Below, one piece after another: positions 49,117 through 50,016 of a stretch of DNA of 64,000 bases. The notes beneath the pieces are model-generated. The model saw only the letters and a program-made list of their open reading frames with translations. It did not search any database and was not told the origin of the DNA. Source of the DNA: an uncultured Candidatus Saccharibacteria bacterium (GTDB lineage Bacteria > Patescibacteriota > Minisyncoccia > Phycocordibacterales > PALSA-1337); NCBI GenBank assembly GCA_964558375.1, contig CAZLCD010000001.1, positions 209,160-273,159 of the forward strand, given 5' to 3'. Position 1 is the first letter of the stretch; every line of letters starts with the position of its first letter. Position numbers and translations under genes: made by a program.

Positions 49117-50016
49117 ATGGCAAATCGACATTTATCAAGATCAGTAGTACTCCAAACACTCTTTGAGTGGGATTTCCGAGGTTGTCATAATGAAAAGGTA
49201 AAAGAATCCATTTCTCGTATATCAGAAGAATTTGCTCCTGGAATGGGAGATTTGTCTTTTATTGAGGAATTAACTTTAAGTGTTTTAGCGAAGAAAGAAG
49301 ATTTAGATAAAATTATTGAAAAAGCTGCACCAGACTGGCCTCTAGACAAGATCTCGGTGATAGATAGAAATATCTTAAGAATGGGATTATACGAACTGTT
49401 GTTTGCTGACCGTGATGAAGTGCCTGCCAAGGTTGCTATCAACGAGGCTATAGAACTAGCCAAAGGTTTTGGCGGAGAGAATAGTGGAAAGTTTATAAAC
49501 GGTGTTCTTGGTTCTGTGTACAAGGAGCTTGGAGAGCCTGGTAAAGAAGGTGCTCCTCCAAAAAAGAAAAAAGTGGATGATATTCCTTATGAGGATATGA
49601 TTGTTCAGAACCTCGGTGGAGCTGTAGTCTATGCTCGGCACGAAGATGAAATCTACATGGCCTTTGTTCACGACATCTTTGGTCACTGGACTCTGTCGAA
49701 AGGTAAGATTCCCGAAGGTGATGTACGAGAAGGTACAGTCGCTAAAGTTAAAGAAGAAATGGGTCTCGATGTCAAAATCAAAGAAGATCTTGGGAATAAT
49801 GAATATATAGCTTCTGATCCAGAAAAAGGAAAGATTCGAAAGCAAGTTCATTATTTTCTAGCTGAATCAAAATTTGATGAGATCAAGCTCGCCGAAAAGC
49901 CAGGCCTCGATGATGCTAAATGGTTTAAGCTTTCTGCTATACTTGAACTTAATTTTTATAATGATATAGTGCCGATTGTAACCAAAGCCATTACCATACT
50001 TAGCCAAGAGAAGTAA
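49117..50016 (+). CDS. NusB-NUDIX fusion: transcription antitermination factor NusB domain followed by a NUDIX hydrolase domain
   Basis: '[33 protein letters not shown]' is a near-canonical NusB C-terminal block. A Nudix box '[24 protein letters not shown]' (G-x5-E-x7-REuxEExGu) follows. Confidence 0.85.
   Translation: [299 protein letters not shown]

Follow-up and report, generated by a model that had tools for sequence, protein, structure and literature searches.

Throughout much of the Parcubacteria (Paceibacteria) NusB as a rule comes with a Nudix domain fused to its C-terminus, an architecture which is ancestral and near-universal there. NusB is a universal transcription factor which normally consists of a single domain. 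The classical proteins of E. coli, Aquifex and Thermotoga have about 130–150 amino acids, whereas the protein encoded in the stretch of DNA analysed here (64,000 nucleotides, referred to as the window) has 299 amino acids, of which about 140 form a Nudix domain tethered to the C-terminus of NusB. It is this extra domain which is new in comparison with classical NusB, and its presence gives no ground for doubting the NusB domain. The explanation we favour, with modest confidence, is that NusB carries on its tether a former pyrophosphohydrolase which in the lineage of the window has turned into a non-hydrolytic or very weakly active binding module, a pseudoenzyme. Both the loss of activity and the nature of the probable ligand are points which we infer from sequence comparisons. 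The following features are relevant:

48854..49087, + strand, rpmF (ribosomal protein L32, Pfam PF01783), upstream neighbour, 29-nt gap
49117..50016, + strand, nusB-nudix fusion reading frame, 299 amino acids plus stop codon, no internal stop
49117..49530, + strand, NusB domain, residues 1–138, all-helical
49531..49596, + strand, flexible linker, residues 139–160, with a run of lysines in the clade of the window
49597..50013, + strand, Nudix-fold domain, residues ~161–299, of the Ap(n)A-hydrolase/RppH-like branch
49702..49767, + strand, degenerate Nudix box, residues 196–217
49741..49746, + strand, codons GCT AAA, as seen in the sequence itself, for Ala209-Lys210 in place of the canonical Arg-Glu of REUXEE
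50041..50736, + strand, rnc (RNase III, Pfam Ribonuclease_3 plus dsrm), downstream neighbour, 24-nt gap

The reading frame of the fusion starts with ATG and has a Shine-Dalgarno-like AGGAAAAGGGG 12 nt upstream. The original prediction had placed the gene between rpmF and rnc and had seen in this an RNA-processing neighbourhood. Both flanks were confirmed, and they recur in related loci, with rpmF upstream of the fusion in 79 of 80 and also in locus L085, and rnc downstream in 80 of 80 and also in L085 and L086. The order dnaE/rnhB/rpmF/nusB/rnc/smc is, however, a deeply conserved housekeeping arrangement, and the genes around the fusion are weak evidence for its function. The intergenic scan found no terminator-like site in the gap between the fusion and rnc, and the terminator and promoter scan for operon boundaries gave matches at chance level only, none of them intergenic. 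Within the 64 kb of the window there is no second copy of NusB or of a Nudix domain, no rRNA operon and no BoxA candidate, and one tRNA only.

By sequence as well as by predicted fold the N-terminal half is a bona fide NusB, as had been proposed from a peptide that is indeed found at residues 102–134. Pfam NusB (PF01029) matches residues 7–136 with E = 6e-35 and 120.9 bits against a cutoff of 23.1, and the NCBIfam equivalog TIGR01951 (nusB) gives 126.6 bits, its cutoff being 88.35. Distant fused orthologs are likewise above the cutoffs of the NusB models. Using phmmer, the solved NusB structures 1tzt, 3r2c, 3d3b and 6tqn were matched end to end by the N-terminal 138 residues. The AF2 model of the domain consists of seven helices with a pLDDT of about 90. 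In Foldseek comparisons it superimposed on the NusB of the NusB-NusE(S10)-BoxA complex (3r2c/3r2d) with a target-normalised TM of 0.87–0.89 and an rmsd of 1.6–2.1 Å, so that residues 1–138 of the window protein both pass the equivalog model and share the fold of the NusB of the rRNA antitermination complex. The fusion gene would then be the NusB of the organism, the subunit of the transcription antitermination complex which binds BoxA RNA and S10, and we infer that the fusion acts within this complex.

That an RNA-binding domain with the NusB fold can stand N-terminally in a fusion with another domain is known from RsmB/Sun, the 16S rRNA m5C967 methyltransferase. There the partner is a SAM methyltransferase catalytic on rRNA, whereas in the window it is a Nudix domain, and the NusB-like domain of RsmB is a paralog, whereas that of the window scores as a true NusB equivalog. 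RsmB models matched the window protein only at residues ~42–147, with 54 bits against a cutoff of 319, and the methyltransferase domain is absent.

Between the two domains, residues 141–155 have an AF2 pLDDT below 50, and the pTM of the whole model is 0.57. No fixed packing between the domains and no docking of the Nudix domain onto NusB is predicted by this model. The linker of about 20 amino acids is conserved among close relatives; in distant orthologs it ranges from 5 to 34 amino acids and is variable in composition. The Nudix domain may thus be pictured as an independently folding unit which hangs from the C-terminus of NusB, with a disordered stretch of about 20 residues as its tether.

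The presence of a Nudix domain in the C-terminal half could also be corroborated. Pfam NUDIX (PF00293) matches residues 186–282 (E = 6e-7; 30 bits, the gathering cutoff being 21.1), and a family profile built from the C-terminal domain (A3) found 3i7u, the Aquifex Ap4A hydrolase aq_158, as the best match in the PDB with E = 5.8e-28, followed by CT771, Ndx1, the Ap4A hydrolases of C. elegans and man, and Rv2985; the top PDB entries were 3i7u, 4ilq, 1vc8, 1kt9, 3u53 and 9cxx. The AlphaFold model of this half is a confident alpha/beta/alpha domain whose top PDB neighbours are all Nudix proteins, the best being Ap(n)A hydrolases, with a target-normalised Foldseek TM of 0.85 to 3i7u. The Nudix domain of NrtR, which is non-catalytic, is also among the top Foldseek neighbours. 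A chance resemblance to Nudix proteins was considered and is ruled out by the Pfam score above cutoff, the profile E value of 6e-28 and the match in fold.

The domain sits in the Ap(n)A-hydrolase/RppH-like branch of the Nudix proteins. With the asymmetric Ap(n)A hydrolases (aq_158, CT771 of Chlamydia, Ndx1 of T. thermophilus, the C. elegans enzyme, human NUDT2 and the N-terminal domain of M. tuberculosis Rv2985/MutT1) it shares a W-x-x-x-K-G motif, a downstream tyrosine and a C-terminal tyrosine; a tyrosine or phenylalanine located downstream from the Nudix box is typical of Ap4A hydrolases. It differs from them in lacking Glu6, Arg14 and Glu15 of the box, in having a serine in place of the proline of their 'PKG', and in being fused to NusB. 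None of the curated Nudix equivalog models reaches its cutoff with the window protein (MutT1 NF052459, 20.9 against 475 bits; RppH NF001936, 14.3 against 118 bits), RppH models matching it weakly with E = 0.027, and orthologs with a canonical box are also far below the RppH and MutT1 equivalog cutoffs. As no curated equivalog was passed, the domain belongs to an unnamed Nudix subfamily.

The claim that the Nudix box is complete had to be corrected. The box was compared with GX5EX7REUXEEXGU and by HMM alignment with canonical orthologs, CT771, MutT1 and the Aquifex Ap4A hydrolase. The peptide that had been quoted for it is present at residues 194–217, and the box, G196-KIPEG-[gap]-DVREGTV-A209-K210-V-K-E213-E214-M-G-L, has one residue fewer than the consensus. 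It has lost three of its five key residues: the glutamate at position 6 is deleted, Arg14 is replaced by Ala209 and Glu15 by Lys210. The EE pair E213/E214 and the glycines G196 and G216 are kept, and these four residues are invariant in the clade of the window. The loss is not peculiar to the single protein, as 116 of the 120 closest clusters have xK instead of RE at this pair. In E. coli RppH, an enzyme that is not part of a fusion and whose box is intact (E53, E56 and E57), the glutamate of 'RE' coordinates Mg2+ as E53, together with E57 and Q37 (PMC7144940). Impaired hydrolysis is predicted for the window protein because this metal ligand is the equivalent of its Lys210.

These data bear directly on the idea that the Nudix domain of the window is an active pyrophosphohydrolase which, delivered by NusB, decaps or dephosphorylates the 5' ends of nascent RNA or hydrolyses Ap4A or (p)ppGpp. 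Such an activity would fit a domain of the Ap(n)A-hydrolase/RppH-like type in which the equivalents of RppH E56 and E57 and both glycines do not vary, which is under strong purifying selection and which has a fully canonical box in many orthologs. RppH and NUDT2 moreover demonstrate that the branch acts on RNA 5' ends, which is what a domain tethered to NusB would meet on the nascent transcript; NUDT2, an Ap4A hydrolase, trims 5'-PPP RNA like RppH (PMC8616924). The shortened box with its missing position-6 glutamate and arginine and with a lysine for a metal-binding glutamate argues against it, as does the score on Pfam NUDIX, which is 30 bits for the window protein versus 52–80 bits for relatives with a canonical box. 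Another point against it is CFIm25, a Nudix domain with a comparably depleted box in which two of the glutamates are missing, which binds Ap4A and ATP but does not hydrolyse them and which is part of an RNA-processing complex (PMC2425470). Judged from these residues, an active pyrophosphatase is the less likely reading for the window protein, and we regard it as rather improbable. The coupling of antitermination to a pyrophosphatase in the original prediction is accordingly reasonable for the family, given the substrates of the branch and the canonical box in 92 of 120 distant orthologs, but less likely for the window protein with its broken box. Apart from this it may be noted that a non-canonical Nudix box does not in every case mean a loss of activity, and that an invariant EE pair is compatible with residual or altered catalysis.

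The 80 best species-level genomes among the references belong without exception to the Patescibacteria/Parcubacteria, and in each of them the fusion was found in full length. As a protein of about 300 amino acids it occurs in at least 240 protein clusters, from clades which are only 38–59% identical. Neither the species genomes nor the clusters contained truncated or stop-containing versions. A frameshift or mis-assembly joining two genes, for which a check of the region between the domains had been suggested, can be dismissed, since one and the same reading frame occurs in these hundreds of independent assemblies. The literature search yielded no description and no characterised example of a NusB-Nudix fusion. 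This agrees with the original prediction, which was aware of no characterised example, but the fusion is not rare, being the usual NusB in much of the Parcubacteria.

The state of the box differs between clades. A canonical box with all five key residues occurs in 4 of the 120 closest clusters and 26 of the 80 species orthologs, as compared to 92 of the 120 distant orthologs and 14 of 19 standalone relatives, and the box is canonical in about half of the sampled fusions and non-canonical in the other half, counts which depend on the clades sampled. Among the orthologs with a canonical box are P0292 of Giovannonibacteria and P0107, which is 79% identical. In a tree of the NusB domains of 230 fusions parsimony placed a canonical box at the root and required about 29 state changes, compared with 77 when the tips were shuffled; the window sits within a monophyletic clade of loss. 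General loss of the box across the family was considered as well and is ruled out by the distant clade with its majority of canonical boxes. The loss is specific to clades and has occurred repeatedly.

Repeated loss of the catalytic box is one of the observations that would be expected if the fusion were a neutral product of genome compaction, in which a housekeeping Ap4A hydrolase gene became joined to the neighbouring nusB, the two domains being independent and the hydrolase half decaying in the clade of the window. The genomes of the CPR are compact and their intergenic regions short or overlapping, and the disordered linker varies among distant clades. This explanation is nevertheless very improbable: it is at odds with the preservation of the full length across the species genomes and clusters of such divergent clades, and with a domain that after the loss of its box is as conserved as NusB. 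Furthermore no split intermediate was found, and those of the nearest standalone relatives which could be placed on contigs do not adjoin nusB. An origin from standalone Nudix relatives was looked for in addition, and P0200 has only four weak relatives, in Firmicute-like contexts with no nusB nearby.

The conservation of the Nudix domain can be expressed in numbers. In the clade of the window the mean pairwise identity is 78% for the Nudix domain versus 76% for NusB; after the loss of the box the Nudix domain has remained under purifying selection as strong as that on NusB. In the set of distant fusions W191, K195, Y230, W269 and Y281 are conserved to at least 99% and K/R242 to about 99%. When aligned with the C. 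elegans Ap4A hydrolase, K195 corresponds to K36, K242 to K83 and Y281 to Y121, and Y230 adjoins Y76; Y27, H31, K36, Y76, K83 and Y121 of that enzyme we take to be residues in contact with the ligand. K195 presumably corresponds also to Q37 of RppH, as judged by eye from a comparison of the motifs. The conserved basic and aromatic residues appear to match positions which in Ap4A hydrolases and RppH belong to the active site or touch the ligand. Among the invariant residues there are several aromatic ones, which might be part of the hydrophobic core instead of a ligand pocket.

One might also imagine that within the parcubacterial antitermination complex the Nudix domain has no nucleotide ligand and that its role is purely structural or consists in contacts between proteins, comparable to SuhB. 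SuhB has an inositol-monophosphatase fold and takes part in the rRNA antitermination complex of E. coli (6tqn, one of the structures matched by the NusB domain) without acting as a catalyst there. As an enzyme-fold protein in a Nus-factor complex whose catalysis is not required it is conceptually like a decayed Nudix domain on NusB. The two differ, however, in that SuhB has another fold, is a separate polypeptide and shows no homology, and contact of the window domain with RNA polymerase or Nus factors is conjecture. A structural role is in line with catalytic residues that are dispensable in many lineages while fold and surface are conserved, and non-enzymatic Nudix domains are a recognised class for which roles in protein interaction are documented (PMC5389931). 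It is difficult to reconcile with the positions of the most conserved charged residues (K195, K/R242, E214, D186 and D283) and of the aromatic residues, which in the alignment fall on the active site or on ligand positions of Ap4A hydrolases and RppH and form no obviously new surface, and with the AF2 model, which shows no fixed docking onto NusB. As half of the sampled family has an intact box, a nucleotide or RNA-end ligand would be the ancestral partner and probably still the present one. A role without ligand is therefore distinctly unlikely in our opinion.

For the preferred reading, a tethered Nudix domain which has turned from hydrolysis to binding, the following sequence of events may be envisaged. 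In the ancestor, and in the many living lineages with a canonical box, a pyrophosphohydrolase delivered by NusB would be the most plausible function, acting on an adenine-nucleotide polyphosphate at the elongation complex. Candidate substrates are free Ap(n)A and the end of the nascent transcript with BoxA (rRNA), either as 5'-triphosphate or with an Np4N cap. The metal-binding half of the site has been dismantled in the lineage of the window, where the remainder of the domain is selectively kept. As residues of the metal site are lost and the domain is still under purifying selection, a binding module with no or very weak hydrolytic activity is the most likely outcome. In the vicinity of RNA polymerase such a pseudoenzyme domain may hold or sense a ligand of the same type, or else the 5' end of the RNA. 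CFIm25/NUDT21, NrtR, DBC1 and TRPM2-NUDT9H are Nudix folds with a depleted box which serve as ligand- or RNA-binding modules, and the domain of the window is likewise depleted and retained under selection. This is an analogy and not membership in a common group, since there is no specific sequence kinship of the window domain to the CFIm25 or NrtR type and since the contexts differ, NrtR having a wHTH and CFIm25 being a eukaryotic cleavage factor.

A more far-reaching version, which we consider speculative and on the whole unlikely, is that in Parcubacteria NusB brings with it a domain which reads or erases the chemistry of RNA 5' ends. Lineages with a canonical box would strip the 5'-triphosphate or the Np4N cap from the nascent rRNA leader co-transcriptionally, and lineages of the window type would clamp the 5' end or sense Ap4A or ATP at RNA polymerase, by which synthesis and maturation of rRNA would be coupled to nucleotide or alarmone status. 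The tethered Nudix domain might also stand in for accessory factors such as SuhB, which minimal genomes may lack.

A NusB which throughout a lineage contains a Nudix domain would be the first direct physical link of the Nus antitermination machinery to RNA 5'-end or dinucleoside-polyphosphate chemistry. Parcubacteria belong to one of the largest uncultivated radiations of bacteria, and it is already known that rRNA biogenesis in this radiation is unusual. The family offers a natural series which leads, on one scaffold, from an enzyme that seems intact to a pseudoenzyme, and this makes the question of catalysis versus binding directly testable. The fusion is visible in public annotation as PF01029 plus PF00293, though unremarked, and the fusion clusters are always annotated as 'NusB' only. 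Thousands of database entries labelled 'NusB' alone hide a second domain, the catalytic state of which differs by clade.

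The fusion is encoded by a single reading frame.

49117-50016, forward strand, nusB-nudix fusion ORF (299 aa, ATG start, uninterrupted)

A purine-rich AGGAAAAGGGG lies 12 nt upstream of its start. The gene is separated by 29 nt from rpmF and by 24 nt from rnc, and no terminator-like site was found in these short flanking gaps. Both peptides quoted in the original prediction are present in the ORF, and the identities assigned to its two halves were confirmed. Pfam NusB matched residues 7–136 (120.9 bits), the NCBIfam equivalog TIGR01951 reached 126.6 bits (cutoff 88.35), and Pfam NUDIX matched residues 186–282 in the C-terminal part (30 bits, cutoff 21.1). 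The solved NusB proteins of Thermotoga, Aquifex, and E. coli aligned end to end with the N-terminal part, which in the AlphaFold model superimposed on NusB of the NusB-NusE-BoxA complex with a Foldseek TM of 0.88. No second NusB or Nudix gene was found within the 64-kb window. Rfam at the gathering threshold yielded no rRNA, riboswitch, or leader element in the 64 kb, the sole match being a tRNA.

35279-35351, forward strand, tRNA

Among 5.8 billion proteins searched, at least 120 clusters proved 76–100% identical to the window protein, all of about 300 aa and, where named, called "NusB" only, from Patescibacteria/Paceibacterota. In one-genome-per-species reference contigs at least 578 stretches encode a relative. 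The best 80 of these all span both domains at 61–86% identity and belong to Taylor-, Nomura-, Adler-, and Kaiserbacteria as well as other Parcubacteria. When P0210, a basal fused representative, was used as search seed, 119 more fused clusters were among the matches listed (Giovannoni-, Niyogi-, Sung-, and Tagabacteria, Paceibacter), 38–59% identical to the window protein. As full-length fusions recur so widely in clusters and species genomes of Parcubacteria, a frameshift or mis-assembly joining two genes is ruled out and the fusion is a single genuine gene. That it is a neutral outcome of genome compaction is disfavoured, since it has been kept and conserved over clades as distant as 38–59% identity.

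The predicted location between rpmF and rnc was found in the window and in its relatives. The order rpmF, fusion, rnc (and smc), preceded by rnhB and a divergent dnaE, occurs in 79 of the best 80 loci, the sole exception being interrupted by a contig end. The order rpmF-fusion-rnc is also present in a Giovannonibacteria genome, and the adjacency of fusion and rnc is kept in one further distant contig. A linkage of rnc and smc is also known in Firmicutes. From the "RNA-processing neighbourhood" originally proposed the conserved gene order therefore stands, but as part of a housekeeping block it carries little weight as functional evidence.

The complete Nudix box that had been claimed is not there. 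The box of the window protein runs G196 ... 209-K210-V-K-E213-E214-M-G216-L217 and is one residue short of the consensus GX5EX7REUXEEXGU. The glutamate at position 6 is deleted, the arginine is replaced by alanine and the first glutamate of REUXEE by lysine, which leaves the EE pair and the glycines as the sole key residues kept. The short box was seen in three ways, by phmmer against CT771/MutT1, by an HMM against canonical orthologs, and by a profile against Ap4A hydrolases. In the RppH motif, which we take to be R52-E53-L-F-E56-E57, the "RE" glutamate E53 corresponds to Lys210 of the window protein, and by motif comparison K195 presumably matches RppH Q37. In E. coli RppH Mg2+ is bound by the Nudix-motif residues E53 and E57 plus Q37 and E120 (PMC7144940). 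P0001, a cluster reported to be 100% identical to the window protein, has one difference, located in the Nudix box (Ile against Val203, DIREGTV versus DVREGTV); an exact copy of the window genome is therefore apparently absent from the protein collection.

Proteins with all of Glu6, Arg14, Glu15, Glu18, and Glu19 were counted as canonical.

Proteins with a canonical Nudix box
Closest clusters (76–100% identity): 4 of 120
Species orthologs (61–86% identity): 26 of 80
Fused 50%-identity representatives: 9 of 56
Distant fused clusters (38–59% identity): 92 of 120
Standalone relatives: 14 of 19

An NJ tree of 230 fusions (118 canonical and 112 non-canonical tips) was built from the NusB domain alone and is hence independent of the scored Nudix residues. 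By Fitch parsimony the root is inferred to be canonical and the state to have changed about 29 times, versus a mean of 77 with shuffled tips; the number is indicative only, as the NJ tree is rough. By this comparison it is clear that the box was intact in the ancestor and was then lost repeatedly, clade by clade. The window protein falls inside a large monophyletic "xK-VKEE" clade, sister to canonical-box orthologs, in which other residues stand in place of Arg14 and Glu15, and Glu6 was changed first to Val or Ile and later deleted.

With the C-terminal 149 residues alone just 596 proteins were found at E ≤ 1e-3 among 1.84 billion 50%-identity representatives, so the domain is a small, distinct Nudix subfamily. 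The best 150 of the 596 comprise 59 NusB+Nudix fusions, many fragments, and about 17–19 standalone proteins of 140–170 aa. Other architectures were seen in three 50%-identity representatives from outside the window: a tandem Nudix arrangement of the same subfamily makes up P0228 (291 aa), P0203 (379 aa) combines Sigma70_r4 and a DnaA-C helix-turn-helix with a Nudix domain of the same subfamily, and P0229 (577 aa) has about 315 extra aa with a weak cold-shock-domain match ahead of NusB+Nudix.

Best matches of the Nudix-domain profile, by rank
1: Aquifex Ap4A hydrolase, 3i7u, E 5.8e-28
2: Chlamydia CT771, 4ilq, E 8.4e-19
3: T. thermophilus Ndx1, Ap6A hydrolase, 1vc8, E 1.3e-18
4: C. elegans Ap4A hydrolase, 1kt9, E 2.5e-18
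5: human NUDT2, 3u53, E 1.5e-16
6: M. tuberculosis Rv2985, 9cxx, E 3.9e-15

An AlphaFold model (143-sequence alignment, mean pLDDT 86.4) yielded an all-helical NusB domain (1–138), a disordered linker (141–155, pLDDT < 50), and an alpha/beta/alpha domain (162–298); with a low pTM of 0.57 fixed packing between the two domains is not predicted. Foldseek on the Nudix domain led back to these Ap(n)A hydrolases (target-normalised TM 0.85 for 3i7u) and placed the NrtR domain, which is non-catalytic and binds ADP-ribose, high in the ranking as well. None of the curated Nudix equivalog models MutT1, RppH, MutT, and NudC came near its cutoff with the window protein or canonical-box orthologs. Both dinucleoside polyphosphates and RNA 5' ends are substrates of the Ap(n)A-hydrolase/RppH-like branch: the Ap4A hydrolase NUDT2 cuts 5'-PPP RNA to P-RNA like RppH, to which it has been called highly homologous (PMC8616924).

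In the loss clade, the window's lineage with the broken box, mean pairwise identity is 78% for the Nudix and 76% for the NusB domain. The decayed Nudix domain can be taken to be still functional because it is as conserved there as the essential NusB domain. Across 128 diverse fusions G168, D186, F188, W191, T192, K195, G196, E214, Y230, P235, G238, K242, Y246, L248, G263, W269, F270, L278, Y281, and D283 are at least 90% conserved, and lysine is the commonest residue at the Glu15 position (41%). In the distant set W191, Y230, W269, and Y281 reach 100% and K195 99%, and either Lys or Arg occupies position 242 in 99%. Profile alignment with the C. elegans Ap4A hydrolase equates F188 with Y27, H190 with H31, W191 with W32, K195 with K36, K242 with K83, W269 with W109, and Y281 with Y121, while Y230 adjoins Y76. 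In that enzyme the adenine presumably lies between Y76 and Y121 and the phosphates are touched by K36 and K83, which we treat as a lead. An adenine-stacking Tyr/Phe downstream of the box is common to Nudix Ap4A hydrolases (PMC2425470). Some of the invariant aromatics may simply form the hydrophobic core.

Architecture, fold, subfamily affinity, catalytic-residue loss, conservation, and distribution are direct observations; beyond them, the ancestral and many living fusions would bring an Ap(n)A-hydrolase/RppH-type activity to the sites where NusB binds, namely BoxA-containing nascent transcripts at RNA polymerase. The obvious substrates there would be the 5' end of the transcript itself, as a triphosphate or with an Np4N cap, or Ap(n)A in the vicinity. 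Such fusions are possible, as in RsmB a NusB-fold domain is fused to an rRNA-directed enzyme. In the window's clade we infer that the Nudix domain has turned into a binding-only or very weak module. A precedent is SuhB, which has an enzyme fold and serves in the rRNA antitermination complex of E. coli, where its catalysis is dispensable. CFIm25, which sits in an RNA-processing complex, lacks two box glutamates like the depleted window box; it binds Ap4A/ATP with undetectable hydrolysis (PMC2425470), and non-enzymatic Nudix domains such as NrtR, DBC1, and TRPM2 are a recognised class (PMC5389931). Residual or altered catalysis remains a rival to a binding-only module, as the EE pair does not vary and a non-canonical box is sometimes still active, and so does a pure protein scaffold without a nucleotide ligand.

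As originally supposed, no characterised example was met: in the literature searched on NusB+Nudix, NusB in CPR, and Patescibacteria antitermination, with subscription journals covered incompletely, the fusion was not found described, and NusB goes unmentioned in a 2017 survey of the Nudix clan. Both Pfam domains are precomputed on fusion proteins in public collections, and the architecture is therefore visible yet unremarked. The fusion is not rare, nor is it new in category. Across a whole lineage it elaborates a universal transcription factor in a way that is uncharacterised and that has an enzyme-to-pseudoenzyme series built in.

Some further features of the window were recorded.

588-22762, forward strand, very large ORFs in tandem (2614, 1186, 1840, 723, and 997 aa)
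47408-48232, forward strand, Bro-N-domain ORF (274 aa; Pfam PF02498, 51.5 bits)
48854-49087, forward strand, rpmF, ribosomal protein L32 (77 aa)
50758-52974, forward strand, SMC-like protein (738 aa only)
53014-56898, forward strand, 1294-aa ORF downstream of smc

The Bro-N domain is typical of phage and mobile-element proteins. Its ORF lies between dnaE and rnhB, directly 5' of rnhB with a 23-nt overlap with the rnhB start, and a homolog is present at just one of the best 80 related loci, L050. In the dnaE/rnhB-to-rpmF interval of two other related loci a Y1 transposase (L085) and a histidine kinase (L086) are inserted, which looks like an insertion hot-spot within an otherwise rigid housekeeping block. 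The SMC-like protein matches SMC_N with both head halves (residues 2–723), no hinge domain was matched in it at E ≤ 0.001, and SMC is similarly short in relatives (727 aa in L085), which suggests a conserved short-coiled-coil, possibly hinge-less SMC in the window's group. The large ORFs likely encode surface or adhesin proteins: the 2614-aa protein has an endosialidase-chaperone (Peptidase_S74) domain besides 14 LVIVD repeats, Laminin_G_3 domains occur in the proteins of 1186 and 1294 aa, and the latter also carries fn3 and InlB-B-repeat domains. In L32 four Cys make up a zinc-ribbon pattern (CSNC...CEKC), and past the 56-position Pfam model the protein continues in a Lys-rich C-terminal extension (…KKTERNKKKADAIGKK).
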